Shown: piece after piece, positions 15,986 through 45,194 of the stretch | Layout of the letters: every line of letters begins with the position of its first letter | How positions within the stretch are numbered: the first letter of the stretch is position 1 | Origin: Solirubrobacterales bacterium | GTDB taxonomy: Bacteria > Actinomycetota > Thermoleophilia > Solirubrobacterales > 70-9 | DNA length: 64,000 nucleotides | Reading direction: 5' to 3' | Assembly: GCA_036260485.1 (NCBI GenBank) | Contig: DATAMR010000007.1 | Span: 691-64,690 of the forward strand | Position numbers and translations under genes: made by a program | The notes under the pieces: model-generated | The model's database searches: none | Seen by the model: only the letters and a program-made list of their open reading frames with translations | What the model was told of the DNA's origin: nothing

Positions 15986-16052
15986 CCCAGAACGTTCAAG
16001 AGCGCTCTCGCAGGGAGAGGCGCTCGCTCTATCTCGAATGGGGAGGAATCAG

Positions 16053-18485: not shown

Positions 18486-18488
18486 ACC

Positions 18489-19357: not shown

Positions 19358-19367
19358 GGCGCGGAGG

Positions 19368-25942: not shown

Positions 25943-25959
25943 GCATCGAAGGTAGCTCG

Positions 25960-27647: not shown

Positions 27648-27649
27648 CG

Positions 27650-29943: not shown

Positions 29944-32231
29944 GGCGTCACCCGCAGGGCGACCTGCATCAGGTCGCGGTCGGCGGTCATCCGGCAGCCG
30001 TCGTAGCGGAACTGCGTGTAGTAGAGGTAGGGATGAGCGCCGCTGGTGGCATAGGTCCGCGAGGCGCTTTCCGGGTCGATCACCGAGGGATAGGAGAGCG
30101 GCGAGGGTCCCCCACAGCGGTAGTTGTGCGTGGTCACCGCGCGGGTGACTAGCGTGCGCTCGCTCCAGTGGACGAGGTCGGCGGACGTGGAGAAGTAGAC
30201 CCCCCGGACCTTCGGCCCGACGCTGCCGGGACCGGGCGGCGCGAGACCGACGAGCAGGTAGCGGCCGAGGACGGTGCTGTAGGTGAGGCTCTCGGCCATC
30301 TCGGCGATCTGCCCCTTGCCGACCGGCTGACAGGGAGCGTGGCGCCGCGGGCGCGAGCGATACGGATCGGTGAAGCGGCCAAAGAAACCGGCCCCGTTCC
30401 AGGCCCGCCAGCCGCCCGGACGGGCGATCGCGCGGGTGCGAATAAGACAGGTGCCCCGGCGGCCGCCGGGGTCGCGGACCCGGACCAGGGCGTACTTGAA
30501 GCCGTCGGCACCGACGACGACGTTGCTCGGGGTGAAGACCCCGGCGGGGCCGCGTTCGGGGCGGTAGCGGTAAGGCGCCGAGGCGACCAGGTTGCCGGGC
30601 GGCGTCGCCACCGGGCGGTAGCTGCGGCCGCCGTCGTCGGAGCGGGCGAGGGTGATCGCGTTGTACCAGCAGCGGATGTAGCGCCGACTCGGGCAGCGGC
30701 CTCGGTGGCGGTTGCCCTGGTACTCGTCGTGGACCAGGGCCCAGACGGTCCTGCCGTCGGCGGTGAAGAGCGAGCCGATCCACTCGCGGTCGGCGAACCG
30801 CCGCGGCGCGGCGTCGCGGTGGGAGCGCATCACCGAGCTGCAGTCGAGTTCGAGGTCTTCCAGCGAGGGGCCCGTGAGCCGGAAGTTCTCGAAGTGGGAG
30901 AGCAGCAGCTGGGTGCGGCCTTCGAAGTCGCGGAAGGCGCGCGCCGGCAGGTCGGGGTAGTTCATCGTCTCGCAGGCTTCGTCGCCCCAGTCGAAGACCG
31001 ACTGCGGCTTGCCGACGACTTCGACCCGCGGCGCCGGCCCCGCCGCCTTCGCCTTGGCCGCGCCGCCGCAGAGCGCGAGCGCAACCAGCAGCAGCGGCAG
31101 GACGCGTTCGAGCACGTGGGTGAGGACCCGGTCGGAGTCGAGCCGCTCGGCGGCGAGCTCGCGAGCCGCGCGCGAGTGCTCCTCCCAATCCGCCGCGATC
31201 TCCTCGGCGCCGGCGACCGCGGCGTCGAGGTCGTCGAAGGCGACCGCGCCGGGGCGCTTTCCCGTCCCAGAGGGACGCAAAAGCGCCCCGCAGCCGGTGT
31301 CCTGGATGAGGGCGGGACGGGCGCTCGCGAGGTAGGTGGCGGTGCGGTCGCTGAACCAGCCCGTGGCGGCTTCGACGTAGACCCCTTGGGCGACCGAAAA
31401 CTCGGCGCCCGAGCCGCGCACGTAGTCGCGGAACGCGGCGGGGGTTCCGGCGGCGGCGCGGGGGTCGACGACGTCCCAGCCGTTGGAGCGCAGCAGCTCG
31501 AGGTCGGCGGCGTCGCCGGGGTGGATGTCGAGGGCGATCTCGAACTTCGCTCCCGGCGCCAGCCGCGGCAGCTCGGCGAAGCGGCGGAACTGGTGGTGCT
31601 TCAGGCCCATCGTCCGCCCGCCGATCGCGAGCCCGCCGTACGGGCTGCGCCAGGTCGCGACCGTGGTGAAGCGCGGCGGACCGGACGGCGTCGACGCCGG
31701 CGCCCACTCCTCCAGCAGCACCGGCGGCAGGGTCGGCGCCCAATCGATCCCGCCGGTCGGGATCGGGCAGCCGGGCTTGCCGATGTTCTGCCCAACGGTC
31801 AGGTAGCGGTCGTAGCCGGCGACGCTGAACTCGACCGCGGGGTCGTCGTGCCAGACCTGGGTGAAGCCGGGGTCGAGGTCGACGTAGACGCGGGTGTCTG
31901 CCGCCGCCGCGAGGGGCCCGCCGCCGAGGTGGCCGCTGATGTCGAAGAGCACCTCGGCCCCACCGGCCAGACGGGCGAGCTCCTCCTCGCCGGCGCCGAC
32001 CAGCGGCTCGCCCCCCGCGCCGAGCAGGGCCACCCTCCCCTCCAGGCCGAATTCGCCCGTCACCTGCTCGAAGTACGCCACGCCCTCCGGCTCGGCGCCC
32101 GGCAGGCGCTCGACGAACCAGACGTCCCAGCCGAGCCGGCGCAGCCCCAGCACCCAGGAGAGCCGCACCCAGGCCTCGCCGCCGCTGTGCGGCTTGTTGG
32201 CGAGCGCCCCGGCGACGACGGCGGTGGCCAT
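29940..32231 (-). CDS. Glycan operon gene 15/19: CgeB-like paralog 2 fused through a hydrophobic segment to a Cys-rich extracytoplasmic propeller-like domain
   Basis: ATG 32231. Residues 1-375 align with the paralog family. Residues 377-390 (LPLLLVALALCGG) are followed by AKAKA, then about 370 aa with 10 Cys and an Asp-box-like ARSDDGGRSY. Confidence 0.65.
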   Translation of the reverse strand: MATAVVAGALANKPHSGGEAWVRLSWVLGLRRLGWDVWFVERLPGAEPEGVAYFEQVTGEFGLEGRVALLGAGGEPLVGAGEEELARLAGGAEVLFDISGHLGGGPLAAAADTRVYVDLDPGFTQVWHDDPAVEFSVAGYDRYLTVGQNIGKPGCPIPTGGIDWAPTLPPVLLEEWAPASTPSGPPRFTTVATWRSPYGGLAIGGRTMGLKHHQFRRFAELPRLAPGAKFEIALDIHPGDAADLELLRSNGWDVVDPRAAAGTPAAFRDYVRGSGAEFSVAQGVYVEAATGWFSDRTATYLASARPALIQDTGCGALLRPSGTGKRPGAVAFDDLDAAVAGAEEIAADWEEHSRAARELAAERLDSDRVLTHVLERVLPLLLVALALCGGAAKAKAAGPAPRVEVVGKPQSVFDWGDEACETMNYPDLPARAFRDFEGRTQLLLSHFENFRLTGPSLEDLELDCSSVMRSHRDAAPRRFADREWIGSLFTADGRTVWALVHDEYQGNRHRGRCPSRRYIRCWYNAITLARSDDGGRSYRPVATPPGNLVASAPYRYRPERGPAGVFTPSNVVVGADGFKYALVRVRDPGGRRGTCLIRTRAIARPGGWRAWNGAGFFGRFTDPYRSRPRRHAPCQPVGKGQIAEMAESLTYSTVLGRYLLVGLAPPGPGSVGPKVRGVYFSTSADLVHWSERTLVTRAVTTHNYRCGGPSPLSYPSVIDPESASRTYATSGAHPYLYYTQFRYDGCRMTADRDLMQVALRVTP

Positions 32232-32234
32232 CGC

Positions 32235-33530
32235 CTAGGAGGGCAACGGGCGCCGCCGCGCTCCCGGTACCCGCGGCAGGAGGCGGGGGCTGTGCCGAGC
32301 CAGGATCGCGGTTTCGCGCAGCGCCCTGCCCCGTTCTCCGTCGCGCAGCGACCGGCCGATCTGGGCGACCAGCAGCTCGCCGTAGTACTGCTTCCAGAAC
32401 CGGCGCGCAGCTCTGTAGGACGCCTTCAGCTCCGGGGTCTCGCGGGCGTAGGGCCGCTGGCGGCGGACCGCGGCCAGGCTCTGCACCAGCATCCGCCCCG
32501 CGTCGCCGCTGGAGTTGCCGCCGTGGGTGCGGTGCTCGGCGATCAGCTCGCCGTGGCTCCAGAACGGGAACTGGCGGGCGATTTCGAGGTTGAGGCCGAA
32601 ATCGGCGGTCTCCTCGAGCTTCGGGTCGAAGCCCTCGACGTGCTCGAACACCGCCCGCCGGTAGATCGAGCGGGCCGGGAATCCCGCCCAGTTTTCGGTC
32701 AGCAGGCGGGCGTAGTGGTCGCGGCGCACGACCGGCTGCTCGAAGGTCTCGATCGGGGCGCCGTCCTGGGCGATCCGCCGGAAGTGGCCGGCGGCGGCGG
32801 CGGCCTCGGGGTGCTCCCTCAGCTCGGCGAGGCCGGTCTCGATCGCCCGCGGCAGCAGCCGGTCGTCGGCGTCGAGGAAGACGAGGAAGTCGCCGCCCGT
32901 GTTGCGGATGCCGAAGTTCCGTGCCCCCGCCATGCCGCGGTTCTCGCAGCGCAGGCAGCGCACCCCCGGGTAGCGAGCGGCGATCTGCGAGGCGTTGTCG
33001 CCGGATTCGTCGTCGACGACGAGGACCTCCAGGTGCGGGTAGGACTGGGCCAGGACGCTCTCGATCGCCTCGCCCAGATAGTGGGCCTGGCCGTAGCAGG
33101 GGATCACGACCGAGACCAGTTCGGCGAACTCGCCGGCCCGGTCGCGGCGCCAGGTGTGGCGGCCGCGGACGACCCCGAACGGCACCCGCTGCTGGCCCTT
33201 CAGCACCGCCGCGAGCTCGATCTCGAACTCCTGCGGGGTCCCGACCAGGTTGATCGTCGTCCGGAAACCGGACCGGCCGGCATCGGGGTACTCGGGAAAG
33301 GCCTTGGCGAGGTCGGGACGCTCGGCCCTCACCGCCGCGCGCCAGAAGGGCTTGCCGTCGATCAGAAACTCGACCGCGACCACCCGGGTCTCCTCGCCGA
33401 GCGCCCAGCCGAGCAGGTCCACCGCCTGGGCGTCGAGGGTCGCCCCCGCCTTCGGCTCGTCGACGAAGGCGCCGTGCAGCTGCGCCGGGGGCGAGACCGA
33501 GACGTCGAGGAATTCAACCAGTGCGCCCAT
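32235..33530 (-). CDS. Glycan operon gene 14/19: module A + GT2 glycosyltransferase
   Basis: ATG 33530 with a GGGAGGA SD. SVVIPCYGQAHYLGEAIESVLAQ ... VVDDESGD ... FLDADD. Confidence 0.8.
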   Translation of the reverse strand: MGALVEFLDVSVSPPAQLHGAFVDEPKAGATLDAQAVDLLGWALGEETRVVAVEFLIDGKPFWRAAVRAERPDLAKAFPEYPDAGRSGFRTTINLVGTPQEFEIELAAVLKGQQRVPFGVVRGRHTWRRDRAGEFAELVSVVIPCYGQAHYLGEAIESVLAQSYPHLEVLVVDDESGDNASQIAARYPGVRCLRCENRGMAGARNFGIRNTGGDFLVFLDADDRLLPRAIETGLAELREHPEAAAAAGHFRRIAQDGAPIETFEQPVVRRDHYARLLTENWAGFPARSIYRRAVFEHVEGFDPKLEETADFGLNLEIARQFPFWSHGELIAEHRTHGGNSSGDAGRMLVQSLAAVRRQRPYARETPELKASYRAARRFWKQYYGELLVAQIGRSLRDGERGRALRETAILARHSPRLLPRVPGARRRPLPS

Positions 33531-33544
33531 CGCCCGATCCTCCC

Positions 33545-35086
33545 TCAGCCGCCGGACCCGTCGTCGAAACGCAGCTCGGCGAAGCGAACCCGCCGCTCCC
33601 CGGGCAGCACGGCGAAGGCCTCGGCCACGCTGCCGGGCGGCAACTGCTGGGCGTTGACGGTGGTGCGGAAGCCGGGGCTGCCGACCTCCAGGCCGGGGAA
33701 CCCGCGCTCGATGTCGGGCCGCGGCACGTCAACCGGCGCCCGCCACAGCGGCTCGCCGCCGACCCGCAGCTCGATCGCCTCGACCGGCTCGTCGCGCCCC
33801 AGCACCCAGCCGATCATCGTCACCGCGTGGGCGGGCAGCGAGGCGCCCGGGACCGGGGCCTCGAGGTTCGCCCCGGCCAGCTCCTCGGGCAGCCGCTCCT
33901 CGCAGTGAATCTCCACCCGCCGCGTCGGCCGCGTCGCGACCCGGGCGCCGTCGGCGCGCAGCGGCAGCTCGAAGACGCTGGCCGCGGCGTCGTCCCAGAC
34001 CTCGCGCGCCTCGCGCTCGAGGTACTCGCGCAGTCCGTCCCTGCCCGCCAACCACCCACGGGCGCTGCCGGGGACGACGACGAAGCAGCCGCCCTCCCCC
34101 GTCGCCTCGGTCTCGCCGCGGTAGTCGGGCTGCGCCGGCGCCAGGTCGGCGGCGGCGCGGCGGATCGTCTCCAACTCGGTCACCTCGCGGCCGTCGCGGC
34201 GCGGCAGGTTGCGAGAGTGGCGGCCGTTGAAGTAGGGCTTCATCTCGCGCCGCGGGTCGACGAGGACGACGCAGGCGCCGAAGGGAACGCCGAGCCGCTC
34301 GACCGCCAGCTGCGCGCCGCGAAACTGGAGGCAGCGCTCGACCAGCTCGTCCTGGCCGGGAAGCTCGGGCCGCAGCTGCTCGTAGAAGCGCAGGTCCTCT
34401 TCGATCTGGGAGATCCGGTCGAGGGCGGAGAACATCCCGCCTTCGTGGACCCGGTAGGCGGCCAGCGGCTCGGGGATGTAGCCGATCGGCCCGCGCTCGG
34501 CGCAGCGGATGTGGATCAGCCAGTCGATCCAGGCGGAGTCGAAGGCCCACTCCGGCAGCTCGGCGACGATCTCGCGGCGGAACATCATCGCCGGCGAGGG
34601 GACGAAGCACTCGGTGAGGATGTCCTCCAGCGCGAAGCTCGACTCTGCCAGCGCCGGGGTCGTCACCCCCGAGGGGGTGCCGGCGGCGTCGTAGACGAGG
34701 CTCGCGTCGTGGAAGCAACTGGCGCGCTCCGGGTGGGCTTCCAGGTGCTCGACCTGGCGGCGCAGCTTCGCCGCCGAGGTCCAGTAGTCGTCGCCGTCGA
34801 GATAGGCGACGAAGCGGCCGCGGGTCGCGTCGAGCACCCGGCGCAGGATCTCGCCATGGCCGACGTTCGCCGCCGGCAGCACCGCGCGCACCAGGGTCGG
34901 GTGGCGCTCGGCGTAGCGCTCGACGATCTCGCGGGTGCCGTCGGCCGAGCGGTCCTCGCCGATCACCAGCTCGAACTCGAAGGGGGCCTCCTGGAGCAGC
35001 ACGCTCTCGATCGCCTGGGCGACGAAGGGGGCGTGTTCGTAGGTCCGCATCGCGACGCTGACCAGGGGAGCGGGCGCCTCGGTCAC
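33545..35086 (-). CDS. Glycan operon gene 13/19: GT2 + degenerate module B + C-terminal module A
   Basis: GTG 35086 (VTEAPAPLVSVAMRTYEHAPFVAQAIESVLLQ). Contains IGEDRSADGT and YLDGDDYW. GTGA overlap. Confidence 0.8.
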   Translation of the reverse strand: MTEAPAPLVSVAMRTYEHAPFVAQAIESVLLQEAPFEFELVIGEDRSADGTREIVERYAERHPTLVRAVLPAANVGHGEILRRVLDATRGRFVAYLDGDDYWTSAAKLRRQVEHLEAHPERASCFHDASLVYDAAGTPSGVTTPALAESSFALEDILTECFVPSPAMMFRREIVAELPEWAFDSAWIDWLIHIRCAERGPIGYIPEPLAAYRVHEGGMFSALDRISQIEEDLRFYEQLRPELPGQDELVERCLQFRGAQLAVERLGVPFGACVVLVDPRREMKPYFNGRHSRNLPRRDGREVTELETIRRAAADLAPAQPDYRGETEATGEGGCFVVVPGSARGWLAGRDGLREYLEREAREVWDDAAASVFELPLRADGARVATRPTRRVEIHCEERLPEELAGANLEAPVPGASLPAHAVTMIGWVLGRDEPVEAIELRVGGEPLWRAPVDVPRPDIERGFPGLEVGSPGFRTTVNAQQLPPGSVAEAFAVLPGERRVRFAELRFDDGSGG

Positions 35087-36414
35087 GATCCCAGCCCCCC
35101 TTCGAGGTGCTCGAAGCGGGCGCCGGGACGGCCGACGCCGCGCCGCCGGTAGCGCAGCAGGGCGCCGCGGTCCCAGCGGGCGAGCGTGCGCAGGCTGCCC
35201 AGCACCGCGCCCCATTCCCGCCGCCGCCAGGCGTTGGCGACGCGCTCGACCAGCGCCTCGCCCTGCTGGGCGCGGGTGTTGCGGATGCCGAGCCGCCGCG
35301 CGGCCCGCTCCTCGGAGCCGCGCAGGCCGCGCCGCTGGCCGTTCAGGACCTGGATCTGCGAGCTGAGGACGAGGCCGGCGTTGCGGGTCGTGTTGGAGCC
35401 GTGGCGGCGATACTCGGTCACCACCTCCTCGTGGCAGAGGACCGGGAAGGCCCGGGCCAGCTTCAGGTAGAGCTCGTAATCGTCGGCCGCCGCCCGCTCC
35501 TCGTTGAAGCCGCCGACCGCCTGCAGCGCCTCACGCCGGTAGACGAGCGAGGATCCCGACCAGATGAAGCATTCCTCCAGCAGCTTCAGGTAGTGGTCGC
35601 GGCTGACGAGCGGCTGGCGGGCTTCGCGCACGACCCGGCCGTCGCGGCCGATGTCGCGCGGCATCCCGGCGGCGAAGGCGGCCTCCGGCTCCTCCGCAAG
35701 GCGCCCCACCCCCACCTCGAGCGCCCGCGGCAGCAGCCGGTCGTCGGCGTCGAGGAAGACGACGTACTCGCCCGTGGTCTCGGCCAGGCCGCGGTTGCGG
35801 GCGGCGGCGACGCCGCGGTTCGGCTGCCGCACGCGCCGCACTCCCGGGTAGCGGGCGGCGACCTCGCAGCTGTTGTCCTCGGAGCCGTCGTCGACTACCA
35901 CCAGCTCGAGCCGCCGGTGGGTCTGGGCCAGCACGCTCTCGATCGCCTCGCCGAGGTAGTGGGCCTGGTTCCAGCATGGGATCACGACCGAGACGAGCGG
36001 CGGATCGGCGCCGGGGGCGGCGCCCTCCTCGCGCCGGACCTGAACCGTGCCGACCTCGGGCCGGGTTCCGTCCCCGAGCACCGCCCGCAGGGCCAGCTCC
36101 AGCTCCTCGCCGTCGCGCAGCGCCGCCAGGTTGGCGCCGACCCGGAAGCCGGAGGTCGCCGCCGTCGCGGCGGCGAAGGATTCGGCGACGCCGGGGCGTT
36201 CGACGCCGAGCTCGGCGCCGGCGACCAGGCGCGCGTCGTGGACAAGCTCGACCGCCCCGAGCGGCTTCCCGGTGGGCACGACCCAGCCCGCCAGGCGCAG
36301 CTCGCCGGGCTCGACCAGCGACCCCGGCTCGGGATAGTCGACCCGCCAGCCCTCGACGCCGGCCGGCGTCGGGCGCTCCTCGATCGCGACGACCCTGAGC
36401 AGGCGGGCGCTCAA
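35083..36414 (-). CDS. Glycan operon gene 12/19: module A + GT2 glycosyltransferase (close paralog of gene 14)
   Basis: TTG 36414 in a TTGA overlap. VSVVIPCWNQAHYLGEAIESVLAQ ... VVDDGSEDN ... FLDADD. Confidence 0.75.
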   Translation of the reverse strand: MSARLLRVVAIEERPTPAGVEGWRVDYPEPGSLVEPGELRLAGWVVPTGKPLGAVELVHDARLVAGAELGVERPGVAESFAAATAATSGFRVGANLAALRDGEELELALRAVLGDGTRPEVGTVQVRREEGAAPGADPPLVSVVIPCWNQAHYLGEAIESVLAQTHRRLELVVVDDGSEDNSCEVAARYPGVRRVRQPNRGVAAARNRGLAETTGEYVVFLDADDRLLPRALEVGVGRLAEEPEAAFAAGMPRDIGRDGRVVREARQPLVSRDHYLKLLEECFIWSGSSLVYRREALQAVGGFNEERAAADDYELYLKLARAFPVLCHEEVVTEYRRHGSNTTRNAGLVLSSQIQVLNGQRRGLRGSEERAARRLGIRNTRAQQGEALVERVANAWRRREWGAVLGSLRTLARWDRGALLRYRRRGVGRPGARFEHLEGGLGS

Positions 36415-37427
36415 CCGAACAGGCGGCTGATGAGGCCGCGTCGCCGGATCTCGAGGACGATCGACCCGATCGGGGTGCGCTCGCCGCCGATCAGGCCCCG
36501 CACCGCCAGCTCGTGCCGTCCTTCGCCGCTTCCCTGGACGACGAGGCGGAAGCCGGCGCGATCGGCCCCTGGGGTCTCGGGATAGGCGCCCGCGACCCCG
36601 GGGCGCTCGATCTCCACCGGCGTGGTCGCCACCATCTGGGTGCCGGCCCAGACCTCGACCGCCTCGACCGCCTGCTTCTTGCCCACCGCCCAGCCGACGA
36701 TCTTCAACGCGTTGGTATCGAGCTCGTCTCCAGTCGCGGGGGCGTCGAGGTGGGCTTGCCGCAGGCCACCCTCCGGCTCCGCCGGGGCGACCTCGACTAC
36801 CCGAATGCTTTCCCGCCGAGCCACCGCGGGATTGTATCCGCGACTCGCGTCGTTCCAGGACTTTCCCCCCCGGCGGGCACGTCGCGACCGCTTCGGCTTG
36901 CGCCCCTCGACGAAGAGGCTCTCCTCCTCGCGGTTGTCGAGCGCGACGATCTCGGCGACGCCGCTGGCGGTCTGGCCGAAGCCGCACTCGCGGACGTCCT
37001 CGAAGCCGGCTCGCTCGAGCAGCTCGACTGCGAAGTCGGCGGTGAAGAGCGTGCGCGAGTACCCGTACCAGAGCATGTGCACGATGAACCGCCCGCCGGC
37101 GCTCGAGACCTCCTCCGGGTCGACCTTGAAGTAGCCCTCCTCGCCGCCGAGATAGGCCTCGATGCCGCGGCGCAGGTCCGGCAGCGCCAGCCGCAGCGTT
37201 CCCCCCGGCGCCAGGACCCGCCCCAGCTCTTCCAGCGCCGGGACCAGCTCGGGGTAGGCGAACTCCGGCAGGGCGTGGATGCTGACCGCGAAATCGATGC
37301 TCTCGCTCTCCAGCGGCAGGCCCGCCCGGATGTCGGCGACGAGGTCGACGCCGGGCTGCTCCTTGACGTCGGAGTTGATCCAGCCCGCCGCGACGTGCTC
37401 GCCGCAGCCCCAGTTGAGCCGCCTCAA
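36411..37427 (-). CDS. Glycan operon gene 11/19: class I SAM-dependent methyltransferase + C-terminal module A
   Basis: TTG 37427 with AGGAGG 8 nt upstream and a TTGA overlap. LNWGCGEHVAAGWINSD ... LAPGGTLRLALPD. Confidence 0.75.
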   Translation of the reverse strand: MRRLNWGCGEHVAAGWINSDVKEQPGVDLVADIRAGLPLESESIDFAVSIHALPEFAYPELVPALEELGRVLAPGGTLRLALPDLRRGIEAYLGGEEGYFKVDPEEVSSAGGRFIVHMLWYGYSRTLFTADFAVELLERAGFEDVRECGFGQTASGVAEIVALDNREEESLFVEGRKPKRSRRARRGGKSWNDASRGYNPAVARRESIRVVEVAPAEPEGGLRQAHLDAPATGDELDTNALKIVGWAVGKKQAVEAVEVWAGTQMVATTPVEIERPGVAGAYPETPGADRAGFRLVVQGSGEGRHELAVRGLIGGERTPIGSIVLEIRRRGLISRLFG

Positions 37428-38548
37428 GCCGCCACCTCCTCGAGCAGGCGGGCGAGGACCTTGCGGGCGTCGAAATGCTCGGCGGCGAGCTCGCGGGCGG
37501 CGCGCGAGTGCCGCTCCCAGTCGCCCTGCACCGCCTCGATCCCGGCCCGGGCGCCCTCGAGGTCGTCGAAGGCGATCAGCCCTTCCCCCGTCGGGTAGCG
37601 CTCGCTGAAGCCGGTGTCGAGGGCGACGACCGGCCTGCCGCTGGCAAGGTAGGCGAGGCTGCGCTCGCCGAGCCAGCCACCGCGGGCCTCGACGTACATC
37701 TCCTTCGCCACCATCAGCTCGCCGCGCGAGCCCTGGACGTAGCGGCGGTAAGACTCCGGGTCGGCGGCGACCGCGGCGGGATCGGCGAGCAGCCAGCCGT
37801 TCTCCTCCAGCGCCTGGAGATCGGCGGCGTCGGCGGCGTCGATCTCCAGCGCCAGCTCCAGCTCCGGGCCGACCAGCGCCGGCAGAGCGACGAGCTTGCG
37901 CAGCTCGTGCGCCCGCAGGCCGAAACGGCGGCCTGCGAACTCGACCGGGTCGTAGGGCCCGCGCCAGCTGCCGACGCTGGTGAACCGCGCGCCCGGCTCG
38001 GCCACCGGCCACTGCTCGGGCAGGATCGGGTGCGGCGAGGTCACCCAATCGATTCCGCAGGTCGGCACCAGGCAGCCGGGCTCGCCGATCCGCTCGCCGA
38101 CGGTGACGTGGGCGTCGTAGCCGGCGTAGGGATCGTGGAGGCCGAGCTCGCACCACATCTGGCCGAAGCCGGGGTCGATGTCGAGGAAGACGTTGCGGGG
38201 CGAGGCGGCGAGCAGCTCCTCGTCGTCGGTGAACCCCATCACGTCGAGGAGCAGGTCGGCGTCGGCGACCCACTCGATCGCCTCGCGGCGCGGCACCCCG
38301 ATCGCCTCGCCCTCGGCGAAGAGCGAGTAGGAGTCCGCGAGCCCGGCGCCCTCCATCACCGCCTCCAGCCACGCCACGCAGCGCTCGCGGTCGGCCGCCG
38401 CGGGGACGGTCTCGGCGCCGATCCGGTCGAGAAAGAGGACCTCGTGTCCCAGCGCCCGGAACCCGAGCAGGTAGTTGAGCAGCGCCCAGGCGTGGCCGCC
38501 GTACCCCGGGCGCTGAGCCAGCGCGCCGCCCACCGCCACGCGGGTCAA
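37424..38548 (-). CDS. Glycan operon gene 10/19: CgeB-like GT-B paralog 3
   Basis: TTG 38548. GGHAWALLNYLLGFRALGHEV, DIDPGFGQMW, GWLGERSLAYLASGRPVVALDTGF...YPTGEGLIAF. Confidence 0.6.
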   Translation of the reverse strand: MTRVAVGGALAQRPGYGGHAWALLNYLLGFRALGHEVLFLDRIGAETVPAAADRERCVAWLEAVMEGAGLADSYSLFAEGEAIGVPRREAIEWVADADLLLDVMGFTDDEELLAASPRNVFLDIDPGFGQMWCELGLHDPYAGYDAHVTVGERIGEPGCLVPTCGIDWVTSPHPILPEQWPVAEPGARFTSVGSWRGPYDPVEFAGRRFGLRAHELRKLVALPALVGPELELALEIDAADAADLQALEENGWLLADPAAVAADPESYRRYVQGSRGELMVAKEMYVEARGGWLGERSLAYLASGRPVVALDTGFSERYPTGEGLIAFDDLEGARAGIEAVQGDWERHSRAARELAAEHFDARKVLARLLEEVAA

Positions 38549-38551
38549 GGG

Positions 38552-39874
38552 TCAGCTCTCCGAGGCCACGGCCGACGTCGGCTCGTATCCGAACTGGACC
38601 AGGACCGGGTCGAGCACCTCGGCGCAGGCCCGCACCAGCTCGGGCGGGAGGTCGCGCCGCCAGCGGCCGACCGAGGCGGAGACCTTCTCGCTGGTCCGGT
38701 GCTCGTCGACGACGGGCGCGTCGCGCTCGGCGCGCTCGGCGACCGCCGCCGCCTTCTCCTCGTCGGCGTCGAGACCGAGGTAGCGCATCATTCCCCCCAG
38801 CGTCGCCGCCGGCTCTTCGATCAGGTCCTCGTAGCGGACCAGGTGGATCGAGTCCCCCCGCTGGTCGAGCCGGCGCTTCAGCCACTCGGCCGAGCTGAGC
38901 AGGACGGTTTCGACGTACTCCTCGTCGCTTCCCGCTTTGCTGCGGCCGAAGGCGTCCCAGCCGCGCTTGCGGTTGAAGGCGATCACCGAGCAGAGGATGT
39001 CGCGGAAGTCGCGGACCAGGACCACCTCGCGGGCGCCGGGGTAGATCTCCGCCAGCAGGTCGGGGACGACCTGGTGAGGGAGGAACTTCTCGACGAAGTA
39101 GCGGGGGGCGGCGCCGGGCTCGGCCAGGCGCGCGTAGAAGGTCTCGATTCGCTCGCTGCAGAGCGCCGTCAGCTCGTCGACCGCGGCCCCTCCCAGCCAC
39201 CCTTCCAGGGCCGGCGCGCCTCCCATCCCGAACTTGAGGTCGGGGCGGTCATACCACCAGCTCGGCTGCCCGATCGGACCGGGTTCGAGCTGGGCGAGAT
39301 AGCTCTGCGGCCGGGCCAGGGTCTGCAGGACGCTTGCCCAGTAGCTGCCGACGCGGGCGTCCGAAGACCAGGGGCTGACGCAGACCGACTCGGCGAGGCA
39401 GCTCAGCACCCAGACGAGCCAGGTCGAGCCGCTGCGGCCGATCGTGTTGACCATCAGCGGCTGGATCAGCTCCTCGCCGGCGGCGGGAAGCGCAGTGCGG
39501 CTGCCGCGGACCGTGGCGATCTCGGTGCGGACGCCCTCCTCCCGCCAGACCACGACCGAGAGCTCGAACTCCCGGCGCAGATCGAGCGTCCCGACCGGCA
39601 AGCGAAACCCGCAGGCGCCGGCGTGGGCCGTGTCGGAGAAGGCGGCGGCGATGTCCTCCCGGGCCTCGCCGGGCTCGGCGGCCGCCACCACCCGTCCCTC
39701 CTGCAGCGCCTCCACCCGGGTCAGCGGCCCCGCCTCGGCCAGCGCCCAGCCGACCAGCTCGAACGAGTAGGTGGCGCTGGCGGCGCCGCCCTTCGGTCCG
39801 TCGATGCTGCAGCCGAGCAGACCTCTGGGGGTGTGCTGGCGCTGCTCGACCTCCTCGATCGTCACCCGCGTCAT
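38552..39874 (-). CDS. Glycan operon gene 9/19: module A + sulfotransferase
   Basis: ATG 39874 with a GGAGGA SD. PAPS 5'-phosphosulfate loop TIGRSGSTWL and 3'-phosphate block LVRDFRDILCSV. Confidence 0.8.
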   Translation of the reverse strand: MTRVTIEEVEQRQHTPRGLLGCSIDGPKGGAASATYSFELVGWALAEAGPLTRVEALQEGRVVAAAEPGEAREDIAAAFSDTAHAGACGFRLPVGTLDLRREFELSVVVWREEGVRTEIATVRGSRTALPAAGEELIQPLMVNTIGRSGSTWLVWVLSCLAESVCVSPWSSDARVGSYWASVLQTLARPQSYLAQLEPGPIGQPSWWYDRPDLKFGMGGAPALEGWLGGAAVDELTALCSERIETFYARLAEPGAAPRYFVEKFLPHQVVPDLLAEIYPGAREVVLVRDFRDILCSVIAFNRKRGWDAFGRSKAGSDEEYVETVLLSSAEWLKRRLDQRGDSIHLVRYEDLIEEPAATLGGMMRYLGLDADEEKAAAVAERAERDAPVVDEHRTSEKVSASVGRWRRDLPPELVRACAEVLDPVLVQFGYEPTSAVASES

Positions 39875-39902
39875 CCGGCTTCGATCCTCCCCGATCGGCC
39901 GG

Positions 39903-41207
39903 TCACGAATCCTGGTAGCCGAACTCGCGCAGCAGCGGGCCCAGCTCCTCCTCGCAGACCGCCGCGATCTCCTCCGGCAGGTCATCTCGCCAGCGCCCGA
40001 TCGAGGCCGCCGGGTCGGCGCTGGTGCGGTGATGGTCCATCGAGGCGGTGTCCTCCTTCATCCGCTGGATCGTCGCCGCCACCAGTTCGGGGTCCGAAGC
40101 CAGCCCGAGCTGCTCGAAGAGCGTGGTCAGGGCCGGCTCGGGATCGAGGACCAGGTCCTCGTAGCGGACGAGGTGCGGCGTGGTGGCGGCCCGCTGCATG
40201 CGGGTCGAGAGGATTTCGCCGGATTCGCGCAGCGTGGTGCGCACGTACTCGCCGTCATCGCCTCCCTCGCTGCGGCCGAAGGCGTCCCATCCGCGCTTGC
40301 GGTTGAAGGCGATCACCGAGCAGAGGATGTCGCGGAAGTCCCGCACCAGGACGACCTCGCGGGCGCCCGAGTAGATCTCCCCGAGCAGGTCGGGGACGAC
40401 CTGATGGGGCAGGTACTTCTCGACGAAGTAGCGGGGCCTCGTCTCCCCCGCGACGTGCGCGTAGAAGGCCTCGATCTGGACCCGCGACATCGCCACCAGC
40501 GAATCGACGGCCTCGCTGCCGAGCCAGCTTTCGAGCTCCTCGTCACCGAGCTCCTGACCGCCCTCCAGCCACCAGCGGGGGGCGTCGAGGTCGGGGGGGT
40601 CGAACGGAGCGAGGTAGGCCGCGGGCTCGGAGAGGCCCTGCATCACGTTGGTCCAGTAGGTCGAGACGCGCGCGTCCTTGATGAAGGGCGAGAAGGCGAC
40701 GACCTCCGGGTGGGAGCTGAGCAGGGTGACCAGCAGGGTCGAGCCGCTGCGGCCGATCGTGTTGACCATCAGCGGCTGGATCTCCTCCCCGCCGGAGGTC
40801 GGCAGACGCCGGCGCGAGCCCCGCAGTCGCGCCAGCGGCAGGCGCGTGTCGTCCTCCAGCTTGGCCCGCAGCACCAGCTCGAACTCCGCCGGCAACCGCA
40901 GGGAGTTGACGGTCAGGCGGTAGCCGCTTTGGCCGGCGCTTTCCACCTCGGGGAACCCCTGGGCGATGTCCTTGCGCTCCCGGTCGAGCGGGGTCACCGC
41001 CACCGGCCGCTCCTCATACAAGGCTTCGATCCGCTCGACCCGCAGCCGCCGGCTGAGGATCCAGCCTTCGATCGCGAACGTGTAGGAATCGGCCGCCGAT
41101 CCCGGTGCCGGGCTGTCCATGTTGGCGTCGTGGACGTAATCGCTTTCGCCGCGATTGACGTCGACGTCGGCGATCTCGACGACCGCGGTCGCATTCCGGT
41201 CGGCCAT
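39903..41207 (-). CDS. Glycan operon gene 8/19: module A + sulfotransferase (tandem paralog)
   Basis: ATG 41207 (or GTG 41210) with a GAGGAGG SD. TIGRSGSTLL and LVRDFRDILCSV. Confidence 0.8.
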   Translation of the reverse strand: MADRNATAVVEIADVDVNRGESDYVHDANMDSPAPGSAADSYTFAIEGWILSRRLRVERIEALYEERPVAVTPLDRERKDIAQGFPEVESAGQSGYRLTVNSLRLPAEFELVLRAKLEDDTRLPLARLRGSRRRLPTSGGEEIQPLMVNTIGRSGSTLLVTLLSSHPEVVAFSPFIKDARVSTYWTNVMQGLSEPAAYLAPFDPPDLDAPRWWLEGGQELGDEELESWLGSEAVDSLVAMSRVQIEAFYAHVAGETRPRYFVEKYLPHQVVPDLLGEIYSGAREVVLVRDFRDILCSVIAFNRKRGWDAFGRSEGGDDGEYVRTTLRESGEILSTRMQRAATTPHLVRYEDLVLDPEPALTTLFEQLGLASDPELVAATIQRMKEDTASMDHHRTSADPAASIGRWRDDLPEEIAAVCEEELGPLLREFGYQDS

Positions 41208-43057
41208 CACGCCTCCTCGGCGGTCGCGGTCCGCTCCGCCCGCTCGCCCCAGCGCTGATCGAAGAGCCAGGCGTTGAAGCGGTTGCTCATGTCCGTCGCC
41301 GAGGGGACGTAGGAGCGCCCCTCGAGGTGGAAGAGCTCGACCTCGGGCACGTACCAGGCCTCGAGGTCGCGCTCGGCAAGCTCCATGCAGAGCTCGGCGT
41401 CCTCGTAGCCGCCCTTCACGTAGTCGACCGAGAACCCGCCGAGATCCTCGTAGAGCTCGCGCTCTAGCAGCAGGCAGGCGCCGCTCAGCGCCGGCACCGC
41501 GCGCCGCTCTTCGGCTTTGGGGAAGCCACGGTGCAGGCCCTTGAAGGCGTGCGCCAGCTGCCAGCCCCCGCTCGCCGGGTTGCGGCGGAACTCGAGCCCG
41601 GCGTGCTGGATCGAGCCGTCGTCGTAGAGCAGCTTCGGCGCCACGACGCCGGCCTGCGGCAGCCCGTCGTGGGCCTCGACCAGCCGCGGCAGCCAGCCGG
41701 GCCGGTCGGGCAGGACGTCGGAGTTCAGCAGTAGGACCAAGCGGCCGCTCGCCAGGGAGGCGCCGAGGTTGGAGGCGACCGCGAAGCCGCCGTTGCGGGA
41801 GAGGATCGCGAGCCGGAACGGGATCCGGTAGAGCTCGTGCAGCTCGGCGACCCGCGGCAGCAGCTCCGGCGCCAGCTCGGGCGAGTCGAGGACGTAGATC
41901 AGCTCGGCGCCGAACATCGCCGGGTCGTTGGCGAACTGCGCCAGCTGGTGCTCGATCAGGTCGACGCGGCGGTAGAGCGGCACGATCACCGAGACGTCGG
42001 GCTCGGCCGGGGGCGTGCCGAAGTCCTCGACCTCGTCGACCTCCACCCTCCCGGACAGCTCCCCCTGGAGGCGGACCACGGCGGGCGCAAGCTGGTCCAT
42101 CAGCGGGGTGTCGACGCGGCGCTCGCGGACGAGCTCGCCGAGAATCGTGTCGCGGACCGCTAGCGGGTCCACTGTCGCCGCCGGGGCGCTGGCCTCGATC
42201 GCGACTCCGGCCGAGTTTTCCAGCTCGAAGACCCAACCCTCGGCGAGGCGGCTCGGGCTCTCGACCTCGAAGAAGCAGACGAAGCCCGGTTTTGCGACCG
42301 GCCGCGGCGCGCCGCGGAAGAGCTCCTCGAGGTCGGGGCGCGGAACCCGGAAGAGGCGCTCGAGGATCGGCGTCCGCGAGCCCTCCGGCGAGACCGCGTC
42401 GAGGCGGACGATCGGCGCCTGGTCGTCGCGGGCCCAGCCGCGGACGAAGAAGGTCCGGTCGTCGACCCTGGCGACGGCGCCGACGTGCAGGCCCTGCACG
42501 TCGTCGGCGCGCAGTTCGGTCCGCGGGTAGGGGTCGCGCAGGGCCTCGCGCAGGACGAAGAGGCTCTTGGCCAGCCCGACCGGGTCGAGGCTGCCGGCGT
42601 GCTCGCCCGGGGTCGCCGCGAGGAAGCCGAGCAGCTGCTCCCTGGTCTCGGCTTCGAGGCCCGCGAGCTTCTCCCTGATCGTCGTCCGCAGATCGACCGC
42701 GACGGCCGGCGCCAGCGCCGGGCCGAAACCGATCTCCTCCTCGCCGCCCCGCAGGCGCAGCTCCACCGTGCGGCCGCCGACGGGACGCGAGACCCAGAGA
42801 GTCAACGCCGTGGTGGCGGCGTCCTCGCCCTCCTCGGCGGAGGGCGGGAGCCAGCGGGTCTCGACCTCGACCGGCTCGCCGTCGACGGTCAGGTCGACCT
42901 CGGGTTCCGCGGCCGCCCGGAGATCGGCGACGAGCAGCAGCACGTCCGTCGCCAGCCAGCTGAGCAGCGCCGGCGCCGGCGCCTCGGCCTCGCCGTTGCC
43001 GCTCGCGAACGGGCCGCCGACCAGCTGCTCGGCGCCGCCGCCGAGTTCCGGCTTCAC
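41207..43057 (-). CDS. Glycan operon gene 7/19: long N-terminal region with a module A variant + GT2
   Basis: GTG 43057 in a GTGA overlap. VSVIVPLYRRVDLIEHQLAQ ... YVLDSPE ... LLNSDV ... EDAELC. Confidence 0.75.
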   Translation of the reverse strand: MKPELGGGAEQLVGGPFASGNGEAEAPAPALLSWLATDVLLLVADLRAAAEPEVDLTVDGEPVEVETRWLPPSAEEGEDAATTALTLWVSRPVGGRTVELRLRGGEEEIGFGPALAPAVAVDLRTTIREKLAGLEAETREQLLGFLAATPGEHAGSLDPVGLAKSLFVLREALRDPYPRTELRADDVQGLHVGAVARVDDRTFFVRGWARDDQAPIVRLDAVSPEGSRTPILERLFRVPRPDLEELFRGAPRPVAKPGFVCFFEVESPSRLAEGWVFELENSAGVAIEASAPAATVDPLAVRDTILGELVRERRVDTPLMDQLAPAVVRLQGELSGRVEVDEVEDFGTPPAEPDVSVIVPLYRRVDLIEHQLAQFANDPAMFGAELIYVLDSPELAPELLPRVAELHELYRIPFRLAILSRNGGFAVASNLGASLASGRLVLLLNSDVLPDRPGWLPRLVEAHDGLPQAGVVAPKLLYDDGSIQHAGLEFRRNPASGGWQLAHAFKGLHRGFPKAEERRAVPALSGACLLLERELYEDLGGFSVDYVKGGYEDAELCMELAERDLEAWYVPEVELFHLEGRSYVPSATDMSNRFNAWLFDQRWGERAERTATAEEA

Positions 43058-44358
43058 GACGCCGCTCCGATCTCGACCCGGCGTTCGGAGAGCAGGCCTT
43101 CGTAGAGATCCTCCAGCTCCTCGACGTGCGTTCGCATGGGGTAGACCGGCACGATCCCGGCGGTGAGGCTGCGCCAGGTCTGGGTGGAGCCGGCCGCCTG
43201 CGAGATCACCCGCGCCAGGTCCTCGGGGTCGCCGACCCGGAAGTGGAGGCCGTCGACGCCGTCGGCGACCTTCTCCGCCATGCCGCCGATGTTGCTGCAG
43301 ATCACCGGCCGGCCGTGCATGAAGGCCTCCTGGATCACCAGCGGCGAGTTCTCCCACCAGCGCGAGGGGACGAGGACGTAGTCGACGTTCTCCATCAGCG
43401 ACCCGAGCTGGTCGTGGTCGTAGCGGCCGATCATCACCACCCGGTCGCCGCTCTCCTCCAGCAGCGCGGCGAATTCCTCCTGGAACTCCGGCGGCTGGAT
43501 CTCGAGGTTGGCGCCGTGCAGGTAGATCGTTGCGTCGACGTCATCGTCGGCGAGGCGTTTGGCGGCTTGGAGGACGACGTTGACCCCCTTGTAGTGGCTG
43601 AACTGGCCGAAGAAGCCGAAGCGATTGCGCTTTTTCCGCCGCGGGTTGGCGGGCTCGTAGGAGAGCGGCAGGCGGCCGTACTCCTCGACCTTGATCTTCT
43701 CGGTCGGGATCCCCCAGTCGACGTAGCGGTCCCGCAGCTGCGCGCTCGGGGCGATGAAGAGGTCGACGTGCTCCATGTGCGACTGGATCAGGCGCTTGCG
43801 CATGAAGAACTCCTGCGGAGAGACGTCGGGGAAGCACTCGTGGCAGCGGCGCGGCGACTCCTCCAGGCAGGGCTCTTCGTCGGTCGCCCGCAGCAGCTGG
43901 CCGTGGCGGTGGCAGATCGGCAGGAACTCGTGCAGCGTGTAGACGATCGCCGCCTCGGGGAGGGTGTTGCGGACCTCGCGGATCGCTTCGAGGCCGATGA
44001 ACAGCGTGTGCTGGAAATGGACCACGTCGGGCTGCTGAGCGACGAGGAAGTCGCGCAGATGAGTGGTGATCGTCGACTTCTCGCGGGTCGAGTTGAGCAG
44101 CCAGTCGAAGTCGTTCAGCTCGGTGTAGAAGAAGTACTGCCCCGGGTCGTTGGCGTCGACCCCGGTCAGCAGGGTCCCCTCGTGGTAGCGCGAGGAGGTC
44201 GAGAATGGCGGGCCGGTGCGGGCGAGGAAGAGCGACTCCCACTCGCTTTCGTCGCGCATCGCCTCGTGCAGCTCGAAGGCGTAGGCCTCGGCGCCGCCGG
44301 GGCGGATCACGGGGTGGTTGTGCGACACGTAGAGGACCTTCTTCGGACTCAGTTCCAT
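43054..44358 (-). CDS. Glycan operon gene 6/19: GT4-family (GT-B, Glycos_transf_1) glycosyltransferase
   Basis: ATG 44358 with a GAAGGAGG SD. C-terminal ENSPLVIQEAFMHGRPVICSNIGGMAEKVADGVDGLHF (EX7E-type block). Confidence 0.85.
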   Translation of the reverse strand: MELSPKKVLYVSHNHPVIRPGGAEAYAFELHEAMRDESEWESLFLARTGPPFSTSSRYHEGTLLTGVDANDPGQYFFYTELNDFDWLLNSTREKSTITTHLRDFLVAQQPDVVHFQHTLFIGLEAIREVRNTLPEAAIVYTLHEFLPICHRHGQLLRATDEEPCLEESPRRCHECFPDVSPQEFFMRKRLIQSHMEHVDLFIAPSAQLRDRYVDWGIPTEKIKVEEYGRLPLSYEPANPRRKKRNRFGFFGQFSHYKGVNVVLQAAKRLADDDVDATIYLHGANLEIQPPEFQEEFAALLEESGDRVVMIGRYDHDQLGSLMENVDYVLVPSRWWENSPLVIQEAFMHGRPVICSNIGGMAEKVADGVDGLHFRVGDPEDLARVISQAAGSTQTWRSLTAGIVPVYPMRTHVEELEDLYEGLLSERRVEIGAAS

Positions 44359-45194
44359 GCGGCCTCCTTCGACCGGAGCGAGATTGGGGTTGAGGTTCTG
44401 GAGCCGTCTGGCAGCTCGTAGAGGACGCAGATACGACTGCGGACGGCAAGTCGGCGGCAGCTGCCGTCGAGGAAAGCGGCAAGGGCGGGGCGCCGGGCGA
44501 CCGTCCACAACAGCGCGGCGGGCACGACTAGGTAGCGGACTCCTTCGCCGCCGAGGGTCCGCAGCCGGGAGACGGCGTGCCGGCCTTCGTCGGCCTCCAG
44601 CGGCAGGTGCCGGCCAGCGGCGTCGTGGGGGAAGTGCCAGGCCGGGCGGCCGAGGTCGAGCAGGGCGTCGTCGCCGTCGCTCAGCACCAGCACCACCTCG
44701 TCCTCCGGGAGCAGGCTGCCGAGCAGGGCCCGAGTAGCCGGCAGGCAGCGCCGCTGCAGCTCTCCCGCCGCGAGATCGGGGACCGCGCGCGGCGCCGCCG
44801 CCGGCAGCTCCAGCAGGCGGTAGACCCGGCAGACCTCCTCCGGCGCGTCGAGCCGCTCATAGCGGCCGCGCAGGTGCAGCTCCAGCTCCGGGTAATGCTC
44901 CAGCCACCAGTAGTAGATCGCGGGCAGGACCAGATAGGCGCCGCCGGCGCCGCGCAGCGCCTCCAGGTGCTCGACCGCCCAGGCGCCGTCGATCGGGTGG
45001 TGGCCCGCGTACTGGCCGCTGCCGGAGCGGGGGAAGTGCCAACCGCTGCGCCCGTCGAAGCGGACCAGGTTCTCATCACCCTTGCTGACCACGAGCACGA
45101 CCGCCCCGACCGGGGTGATCTCCTCGACCAGGGCCGCGACCCGCGGCGCCAGCTCCTCATAGGCGACGTTGCCGCCGACCACGGTCAGGCTCAT
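44349..45194 (-). CDS. Glycan operon gene 5/19: stand-alone protein made of two tandem module B copies
   Basis: ATG 45194 in an ATGA overlap. Copy 1 reads VLVVSKGDENLVRFDGRSGWHFP...YAGHHPIDGAWAVEHLEALRGAGGAYLVLP...WWLEHYPEL. Copy 2 is more diverged. Confidence 0.65.
   Translation of the reverse strand: MSLTVVGGNVAYEELAPRVAALVEEITPVGAVVLVVSKGDENLVRFDGRSGWHFPRSGSGQYAGHHPIDGAWAVEHLEALRGAGGAYLVLPAIYYWWLEHYPELELHLRGRYERLDAPEEVCRVYRLLELPAAAPRAVPDLAAGELQRRCLPATRALLGSLLPEDEVVLVLSDGDDALLDLGRPAWHFPHDAAGRHLPLEADEGRHAVSRLRTLGGEGVRYLVVPAALLWTVARRPALAAFLDGSCRRLAVRSRICVLYELPDGSRTSTPISLRSKEAAWN

Follow-up and report, generated by a model that had tools for sequence, protein, structure and literature searches.

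An Ig-like module related to Big_7 domains is fused to seven soluble enzymes of one sugar-polymer cluster and may tether them to a common glycan

We found that one non-catalytic module is fused to seven enzymes of a single sugar-polymer cluster (four GT2, two sulfotransferases and one methyltransferase) in the 64,000-nucleotide stretch of DNA analysed here, hereafter the window. The module represents a subfamily of the Big_7 bacterial Ig domains (PF17957, E-set) that is divergent and as yet without annotation: the Big_7 Ig-like superfamily was known, and the enzyme-fused subfamily, which lies below family thresholds, is new. Beyond a few models (TarS, WbdD/Wzt), little is understood of the way in which soluble enzymes that tailor a bacterial polysaccharide locate the growing polymer and remain on it. 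Here, almost all the tailoring enzymes of a putative cluster for a sulfated, methylated glycan carry a single Ig-like module. Our leading but tentative proposal is that, in the cytoplasm, it tethers the enzymes to the nascent glycan in the manner of a CBM; the ligand, and with it the mechanism, is inferred. The evidence leans to glycan binding, without deciding between glycan binding and complex assembly.

All seven genes lie on the minus strand, and the gene calls of the source contig agree with them, giving an identical set of seven intact ORFs, with that of the methyltransferase continuous. Their catalytic domains were confirmed by Pfam (Glycos_transf_2, Methyltransf_11 and Sulfotransfer_3/1), with scores above the gathering cut-off outside the module (PF00535, 37.6–123.5 bits in the four GT2; PF13469, 53.7 and 54.5 bits; PF08241, 29.8 bits). 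The module is N-terminal in four of the enzymes. In GT2_a (431 aa; 32235–33530) it spans aa 15–124 (33159–33488; leave-one-out profile 108.5 bits, E 2.6e-31) and is followed by Glycos_transf_2 (PF00535, E 5e-33, aa 140–297); in GT2_c (443 aa; 35083–36414) it spans aa 17–126 (36037–36366; 67.8 bits, E 9.6e-19), ahead of the same domain (PF00535, E 1.1e-35). The sulfotransferases ST_a (440 aa; 38552–39874) and ST_b (434 aa; 39903–41207) carry it at aa 16–125 (39500–39829; 75.3 bits, E 5.2e-21) and aa 22–131 (40815–41144; 95.3 bits, E 3.3e-27), respectively, before Sulfotransfer_3 (PF13469, E 4.4e-14 and 2.5e-14). It is C-terminal in GT2_b (513 aa; 33545–35086), where aa 400–509 (33560–33889; 74.7 bits, E 7.3e-21) follow Glycos_transf_2 (PF00535, E 7e-18, aa 10–125), and in the 338-aa SAM methyltransferase (36411–37427), where aa 219–328 (36444–36773; 66.8 bits, E 1.9e-18) follow Methyltransf_11 (PF08241, E 9.4e-7). 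In GT2_d (616 aa; 41207–43057), a divergent copy at aa 178–305 (42143–42526; aligned core aa 197–283, nt 42209–42469) is internal, between an N-terminal region and the GT2 domain (PF13641/PF00535, aa 353–582). The initial annotation had placed the module in these seven enzymes, and every peptide that it quoted is found there; its description of a non-catalytic unit independent of position in the protein likewise holds. A search of the six-frame translation of the window with narrow and broad profiles gave no copies beyond these seven. None of the tagged proteins has a TM-like or signal-like segment. The cluster also encodes a membrane synthase-like GT2 and four paralogous proteins of ~375 aa, and no ABC transporter gene was seen in it (~25.9 to 53.4 kb).

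The copies had been proposed to be homologous, and six of the seven are mutually significant (leave-one-out profile E 1e-18 to 3e-31), with pairwise identities of 26–43%. Among the copies, the N-terminal one of GT2_a has its best match in the C-terminal one of GT2_b (43%), and ST_a/ST_b and GT2_a/GT2_c are whole-gene paralogues. The GT2_d copy was missed by pairwise BLAST and by the six-copy profile, and scored only 4.3 bits against a profile of 583 domains. Comparison of the GT2_d family with the module family by hhalign gave Prob 90.9 (E 1.2e-6) with GW, RPD and GF in register, negative controls giving Prob <2; a further hhalign run on this copy gave Prob 58 (E 9.9e-5). In its AF2 model (pLDDT 88.1), strands and helix follow one another as in the other copies, and the model matches Ig-like folds. 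As judged from profile–profile comparison and structure prediction, the only methods by which it is seen, the GT2_d copy is a divergent module. The size originally given, ~110 aa, is correct, and a conserved extra strand ~12 residues upstream brings the module nearer to 125 aa.

The suggestion of a beta-sandwich is borne out by the AF2 model of the GT2_a module (pLDDT 93.7), which has Ig-like matches; the fold, predicted with confidence, is an Ig-like beta-sandwich of seven strands in which the RPD motif lies on a short helix. Among the best 50 Foldseek PDB matches of each model, the fold matches are weak throughout (E >= 4.5e-3, TM 0.5–0.65). The best match of the module, with a modest score, is 9kvu (TM 0.57/0.65, E 4.5e-3), followed by 3pdd; 9kvu is itself a Big_7 domain, in keeping with the Ig-like (E-set) fold of that family. 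A sulfite oxidase or sulfite dehydrogenase dimerisation domain is among the matches of both AF2 models, a pullulanase N-domain (3wdh) among those of the GT2_d module, and the endolysin of Enterococcus phage Zip among the top BFVD matches (TM 0.62).

That the module is an Ig-like domain of the Big_7 superfamily is very probable, and transitive profile evidence connects it to bona fide Big_7 members. No copy in the window reaches Pfam or NCBIfam thresholds. Scanned alone at E<=10, the GT2_a and methyltransferase modules score 14.9 and 14.1 bits, short of the Big_7 gathering cut-off of 24.1 bits, over only the N-terminal half of the Big_7 profile; the other five modules give no Big_7 match at this threshold, and none appears in the full-protein scan. 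The six-copy profile, however, matches 5,434 cluster representatives at E<=1e-3 and 2,055 at E<=1e-10, and multi-repeat proteins predominate among the best 150 of the 5,434 matches. The top matches are autolysins of Vagococcus, Clostridium septicum, Ethanoligenens and C. cellulovorans, and the Firmicute autolysins contain 5–12 tandem repeats (20–59 bits each) with the same GW..RPD(V/I)..(F/Y)P..SGF motif; the elements common to the module and Big_7 repeats are D-x-P, GW, RPD(V/I), (F/Y)P and SGF. Pfam Big_7 calls coincide with repeats found by the module profile (363–448 against 366–458 in P0017; 512–594 against 513–605 in P0020), and a single autolysin repeat, at 27 bits, scores above the Big_7 cut-off of 24.1 bits. 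In PDB sequences, the six-copy profile found matches only at E~1, and a broader profile gave one marginal match, 8c4d_A (E 1e-3, 21 bits). Searches by tblastn with the GT2_a module against plasmids and with a Firmicute repeat against phage genomes gave no match. The initial annotation had named mapping to an already described domain with a known role as something that would count against its reading, and the present result touches on this: the module is a sub-threshold Big_7 relative and not an orphan, although no one role is established for Big_7. With an HMM of its own, the domain could be annotated in thousands of proteins where Pfam and NCBIfam now miss it.

The close subfamily occurs on soluble enzymes without a signal peptide, of five classes: GT2, sulfotransferase, methyltransferase, AlgX-like and CE4 deacetylase. 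Several tagged enzymes per cluster occur in Solirubrobacterales, Miltoncostaeaceae, Geodermatophilus and other lineages. Unrelated clusters are tagged as well: L012 and L014 have 3–4 tagged enzymes, and L013 has at least eight module matches. Some close homologues carry 2–3 tandem modules on one enzyme, and others consist of modules alone. The module is under purifying selection comparable to that on the catalytic domain: over 95 GT2_a orthologues, mean identity is 65% in the module and 71% in the catalytic domain, and the module is kept in 112 of 120 homologues. E40 is conserved (85%) in the enzyme-fused subfamily and not in the tandem repeats; the most conserved residues, GW, RPD and GF, are also present in very distant extracellular repeats.

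The seven soluble cytoplasmic enzymes differ in donor (NDP-sugar, PAPS or SAM) and presumably have their acceptor in common. Under the tether proposal, the CBM-like module would keep every tailoring enzyme attached to the polysaccharide as it is made, whether lipid-linked or synthase-bound, raising local acceptor concentration and processivity, with oligomerisation possibly contributing alongside. Glycan binding is favoured because relatives of the module form long tandem arrays on peptidoglycan hydrolases and because one lies at the C terminus of an Enterococcus prophage endolysin, the usual place of cell-wall-binding domains. The 2–3 tandem modules on one enzyme, or modules alone, in close homologues also fit an avidity pattern typical of glycan-binding repeats. 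The partner enzymes all act on polysaccharide with differing chemistries; the acceptor is what they have in common. The seven tagged proteins of the window have no TM-like or signal-like segments. In addition, the module tolerates N-terminal, C-terminal and internal placement, as CBMs do, it is conserved nearly as well as the catalytic domain and is kept in most homologues, and there are cytoplasmic precedents for Ig or beta-sandwich domains of CBM type in TarS, the Wzt CBM and K. pneumoniae O7 ORF6. Should glycan binding be correct, the module would constitute a new family of cytoplasmic CBMs and provide a handle to predict which enzymes share one polymer.

TarS, a GT2 wall-teichoic-acid glycosyltransferase of S. 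aureus, has Ig-like CBM-type domains that have been proposed to bind the acceptor polymer and raise processivity; they form the trimer interface and are largely dispensable for catalysis (PMC5156392). As in the window, the enzyme bearing the Ig-like beta-sandwich is a cytoplasmic GT2, one that decorates a glycopolymer, and the pullulanase N-domains that TarS resembles are among the fold matches of the GT2_d module. However, no sequence relationship to TarS was detected, and TarS is absent from the best 50 fold matches of either model. Its domains are a C-terminal tandem pair, CBM48/CBM68-like, in a trimer with basic grooves, whereas here a single acidic module at variable position is spread over seven enzymes of three catalytic classes. 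The C-terminal CBM of Wzt, a beta-sandwich located in the cytoplasm, recognises nascent glycan on its lipid carrier (PMC9445017; PMC11231755). The earlier comparison of the module with Wzt amounts to analogy at most: there is no Wzt_C Pfam match (full proteins at E<=1, isolated modules at E<=10) and no Wzt chain in the best 50 Foldseek matches, and we rejected homology to Wzt_C. Wzt_C is attached to the C terminus of an ABC nucleotide-binding domain, unlike the copies here on GT2, sulfotransferase and methyltransferase. The K. pneumoniae O7 ORF6 methyltransferase-kinase terminator contains an Ig-like possible CBM whose importance is not known (PMC11231755). It resembles the present case, by description, in having an Ig-like fold within a cytoplasmic O-polysaccharide tailoring or assembly enzyme, but this fold comes from an AlphaFold model only and occurs once, not as a tag shared by many enzymes.

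Within the family, 9kvu is the B1 Big_7 domain of CelAly, for which binding to alginate gel has been shown experimentally (PMC13235733). The Big_7 repeats of Firmicute N-acetylmuramoyl-L-alanine amidases and glucosaminidases and of CelAly are, like the module, Ig-like sandwiches that act as non-catalytic accessories on carbohydrate-active enzymes, although Big_7 arrays sit on secreted hydrolases and the modules of the window occur singly, on biosynthetic enzymes of the cytoplasm. The face used by CelAly B1 is basic. By contrast, the six window modules are all net acidic (−1 to −8), which makes binding of a sulfated product by simple electrostatics unlikely when they are set against the basic faces of CelAly B1 and TarS; a basic face for a sulfated polymer is thus unsupported. 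The endolysin is EfAmi1 of an Enterococcus faecium prophage (8c4d sequence), whose C-terminal domain has GW..RPDV..GF in register with the module; this domain is missing from the 8c4d crystal and its function is only predicted (PMC10167349), and the similarity is borderline (E 1e-3), which weakens the link. EfAmi1 also acts outside the cytoplasm, on peptidoglycan, unlike the module enzymes. The glycan reading is further weakened because GW, RPD and GF could be purely structural, being shared with extracellular repeats, because the weak fold matches include the sulfite oxidase dimerisation domain and so point equally to protein–protein contacts, and because catalysis by TarS can largely dispense with its Ig-like domains.

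The main rival to a glycan tether is docking or oligomerisation of the enzymes. It is possible, though in our view doubtful, that the modules bind to one another or to a shared protein partner (candidates are the four paralogous proteins of ~375 aa and the membrane GT2 that resembles a synthase), so that the tailoring enzymes assemble into a membrane-proximal complex, a cytoplasmic counterpart of dockerin–cohesin or PKS docking domains. Ig-like domains commonly make protein–protein contacts, as at the TarS trimer interface; both AF2 models match the sulfite oxidase dimerisation domain, and a related repeat has a weak Mo-co_dimer match. The acidic net charge, which speaks against binding of an anionic polymer, and the presence of many tagged enzymes per cluster, recurring in the unrelated clusters L012, L013 and L014, are also consistent with docking. 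Yet the analysis identified no conserved partner, one interface common to all is not evident for modules that are so divergent from one another, and the autolysin arrays and tandem copies accord better with avidity for a repetitive polymer than with specific docking. If docking were correct, the module would offer a portable assembly tag for glycoengineering. A more specific version, in which a dedicated 'address label' recruits up to seven or eight tailoring enzymes to one scaffold (the synthase, a partner protein or each other) to form a glycan-assembly metabolon, seems unlikely to us; it would be a biosynthetic, intracellular counterpart of the dockerin–cohesin system of the cellulosome, and a tag recurring in many bacterial polysaccharide clusters could then be reused to re-wire glycan tailoring.

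We consider it improbable that the module plays a passive structural part, whether as a spacer, as a membrane-proximal stalk or in aid of folding or solubility, with no specific ligand, and that it was retained because it was passed on when enzyme genes were duplicated. Bacterial Ig domains, Big_7 among them, are often regarded as linkers, the motifs shared with very distant extracellular repeats are consistent with a structural core, and the paralogue pairs ST_a/ST_b and GT2_a/GT2_c could have inherited their modules. However, fusion to at least five unrelated catalytic folds at varying positions calls for repeated independent fusions and not inheritance, and the closeness of an N-terminal module (GT2_a) to a C-terminal one (GT2_b) speaks against it as well, as do conservation near that of the catalytic domain and the retention in enzyme-fused members of subfamily-specific residues such as E40. 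Still less probable, in our estimation, is recognition of a lipid carrier or the membrane surface (an Und-PP-linked primer or anionic lipids) that places soluble enzymes at the inner membrane face. The tagged enzymes are soluble and yet must act on a membrane-bound intermediate, and the cluster does encode a membrane synthase-like GT2; but the acidic modules have no amphipathic or basic patch at the sequence level, and the autolysin relatives act on cell walls, not membranes.

A word-indexed protein search with the module profile gave only 16 short proteins, of 76–163 aa. For these, a stand-alone reading was rejected, as a 1.27-Mb sister contig shows that they derive from frameshifted or fragmentary methyltransferase and GT2_b genes.

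Gene calls on a 206-kb JGI metagenome contig (3300037392, Ga0400311_0000003), which encodes a protein identical to GT2_a, resolved seven intact ORFs across 32235-43057, all on the minus strand of a window of ~72% G+C. Four encode GT2 proteins, namely GT2_a (32235-33530; 431 aa), GT2_b (33545-35086; 513 aa), GT2_c (35083-36414; 443 aa) and GT2_d (41207-43057; 616 aa); the others encode a methyltransferase (36411-37427; 338 aa) and the sulfotransferases ST_a (38552-39874; 440 aa) and ST_b (39903-41207; 434 aa). Close homologues carry Solirubrobacterales names. Pfam confirmed the catalytic domains of all seven proteins; scanning the full proteins, it reported no domain on the module segments, and NCBIfam had no model covering the module.

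The initial annotation had guessed that the module is a beta-sandwich, and structure prediction bore this out. An AF2 model of the GT2_a copy, built from a 20-sequence alignment, had a pLDDT of 93.7 and a pTM of 0.84, with seven predicted strands and, at RPDxxxAF, a single short helix. Foldseek searches of the PDB with this model returned only modest matches (E values of 4.5e-3 or higher, TM 0.5-0.65), all of them Ig-like. The best, statistically weak as fold matches, were 9kvu (B1, a Big_7 domain of CelAly), the domain through which plant sulfite oxidase dimerises, and Fn3-like modules of Clostridium thermocellum CbhA. We rejected kinship with Wzt_C, given that its HMM did not match the module and no Wzt chain was among the top fold matches; the comparison drawn with Wzt holds as an analogy only.

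Searched exhaustively with the module profile in HMMER, 1.84 billion cluster representatives yielded 5,434 matching proteins at E≤1e-3, of which 2,055 reached ≤1e-10 and 229 reached ≤1e-30. Multi-repeat proteins make up most of the best 150 of the 5,434 matches. Among these, the highest total scores went to proteins 800-1,400 aa long that match the module 5-12 times in tandem, the top ones being autolysins or proteases of Vagococcus lutrae, Clostridium septicum, Ethanoligenens harbinense and C. cellulovorans that carry Amidase_3, Glucosaminidase or Peptidase_S8 domains. The motif is visible in the repeats as GW..RPDIA.AYPQYPNAG.SGF, and Pfam calls of Big_7 (PF17957) coincide in coordinates with the module-profile matches. 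One isolated repeat clears the Big_7 cut-off (27 versus 24.1 bits); the window copies reach 14.9 bits at most, and their matches cover only the N-terminal half of the model. Because the repeats are Big_7 at the same coordinates and the window copies fall below the threshold, the module is a divergent Big_7 / E-set Ig subfamily, missed by the present models of Pfam and NCBIfam. The conserved positions of the module are P12, G15, G27, W28, E40, R57, D59, G74, F75 and R101. Enzyme-fused and tandem-repeat members alike keep D-x-P, GW, R-P-D, P and G-F/Y; E40 and a few alanines are specific to the enzyme-fused members. About 12 codons upstream of the module (for example, 33489-33521, minus strand), we also noted a strand-like motif, (I/V)x(V/I)x(E/D)V, in the six clear copies, with instances such as VEFLDV, IRVVEV, VVEIADV and VTIEEV. 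Judging from this conserved strand, the true domain may reach ~125 aa.

The seventh copy, in GT2_d, was missed by pairwise BLAST and by a profile of the other six, and a 583-domain profile scored it at only 4.3 bits. Across the GT2_d family (30 homologues), GW, RPD and GF are conserved. Over 80 columns, hhalign aligned the central region of this family with the module family at Prob 90.9 and E 1.2e-6 and kept the motifs in register, whereas controls (four other segments and one reversed) stayed below Prob 2. A second run with smaller alignments recovered the same region (Prob 58, E 9.9e-5). AF2 predicted an Ig-like sandwich here (pLDDT 88.1), with strands and short helix ordered as in the main module, and the two share fold matches, such as sulfite oxidase/dehydrogenase and Ig domains. 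Profile-profile comparison and predicted structure thus make it very probable that the GT2_d segment is a divergent copy of the module.

Over 95 orthologues, mean identity to GT2_a was 65% for the module, 71% for the catalytic domain and 59% for the C-terminal region, and the module is therefore under constraint comparable to that on the catalytic domain. The N-terminal module of GT2_a is nearest to the C-terminal module of GT2_b (43% identity) and shares 33% identity with the module of its whole-gene paralogue GT2_c. This nearness, together with five unrelated partner folds, indicates repeated domain shuffling.

Module-enzyme fusions extend well beyond the window. A closer tier of matches (60-105 bits per domain, proteins of 400-1,600 aa) carries one to three modules together with Sulfotransfer_3, SAM-methyltransferase or GT2 domains, or with no other Pfam domain, and includes a Thermoguttaceae sulfotransferase. 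The module is kept in 112 of the 120 best GT2_a homologues, including that of the cultured Geodermatophilus sp. SYSU D01105, and the same fusions occur in syntenic clusters of other Solirubrobacterales MAGs and one Miltoncostaeaceae MAG. The Geodermatophilus cluster has three module-tagged GT2s, and another genome has three plus one tagged sulfotransferase. The metagenome contig L013 has at least eight module matches, among them a GT2 with a module on each side, a sulfotransferase with two modules and, at 14617-16746, a coiled-coil-like linker followed by a module and a CE4 polysaccharide deacetylase (Polysacc_deac_1). An AlgX-domain (PF16822) protein of the closest sister cluster (L001, on a contig of an 83%-identical sister MAG), encoded at 18074-19396, has an N-terminal module (48 bits) and no signal peptide; its orthologue is absent from the window. 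Given tagged clusters in several other genomes, tagging many tailoring enzymes per cluster is a design that recurs and is not peculiar to the window.

Frameshifts split some genes in these related loci. The L001 orthologues of the methyltransferase and GT2_b (9397-10423 and 11739-13278) are frameshifted, probably through long-read assembly errors, so that the module is called as separate ORFs of 140 and 182 aa; such splits explain short 'stand-alone' module matches in databases. Many L013 genes also look frameshifted, and this locus has an upstream ABC transporter.

NDP-sugars, PAPS and SAM, the donors of these enzyme families, are cytoplasmic, and all seven proteins lack TM-like segments and hydrophobic N termini. 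We tentatively regard a cytoplasmic, CBM-like tether as the most likely role, by which the tailoring enzymes would be held on a common acceptor glycan. This analogy draws on the avidity-type arrays of relatives on cell-wall hydrolases, a marginal relative at the C terminus of an Enterococcus endolysin, the usual site of cell-wall-binding domains, and the stacking of two or three modules on single enzymes in homologues. The partner enzymes have nothing in common except a polysaccharide substrate, and CelAly B1, the only experimentally studied structural neighbour, binds a polysaccharide (PMC13235733). TarS provides a precedent: it is a cytoplasmic GT2 with Ig-like domains, and these CBM-type domains are proposed to raise acceptor affinity and processivity (PMC5156392).

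The same TarS domains also form a trimer (PMC5156392), which fits the main rival, a role in docking or oligomerisation. The matches to the sulfite oxidase dimerisation domain point the same way, and the acidic net charge of the six modules (-1 to -8) makes it less plausible that they simply bind an anionic product; we consider docking somewhat less probable than tethering. The two functions suggested in the initial annotation, polymer binding and complex assembly, both stand as candidates. A putative passive structural role appears improbable, and targeting to the membrane or a lipid carrier more improbable still.

Kinship with Big_7 weakens the case for a wholly new domain. The fold and superfamily are already known; the subfamily, and the way it is systematically fused to cytoplasmic glycan-tailoring enzymes, appear undescribed. 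Full-text literature searches turned up no paper tying Ig-like domains in this way to sulfotransferases or glycosyltransferases of bacterial polysaccharides. What comes closest is an Ig-like 'CBM', itself unstudied, which was seen in the AlphaFold model of the Klebsiella pneumoniae O7 terminator and described as without precedent among terminators (PMC11231755).

Several other features of the cluster were observed. Within the cluster (~25.9-53.4 kb of the window) we saw neither an ABC transporter nor a Wzx-type gene, and an 804-aa protein (51008-53422, minus strand) is synthase-like in that it joins a GH2_C-like TIM-barrel N terminus to a GT2/Glyco_trans_2_3 domain and has about three TM-like segments; polymer export may thus depend on a synthase. 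At the downstream end (25900-29554, minus strand) lie a DegT/DnrJ/EryC1 aminotransferase, an APH-type kinase and a YdjC-like protein, a trio that also flanks the related clusters of Geodermatophilus and another genome and suggests an amino-sugar-containing product.

Two further modules recur on the minus strand. One, of ~375 aa, has no Pfam family, with only a faint Glyco_trans_1_2 match in related loci. It occurs four times: as whole proteins of 383 aa (28792-29943) and 374 aa (37424-38548), as the N-terminal half of a 763-aa protein (29940-32231) whose residues 369-392 form one TM-like segment, and as the N-terminal half of an 823-aa protein (46537-49008), where it is followed by a GT2. BLASTP identity between copies is 33-49% (E 1e-46 to 1e-97). 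The other, of ~100-120 aa with the motif ..VLVVSxGDxxLL....HFP......GHHP..., had no match in a Pfam scan; two copies lie in a 367-aa protein (44349-45452) and others at the C termini of two GT2 proteins (45191-46600 and 46537-49008), with 33-55% identity between copies (E 1e-9 to 1e-27).
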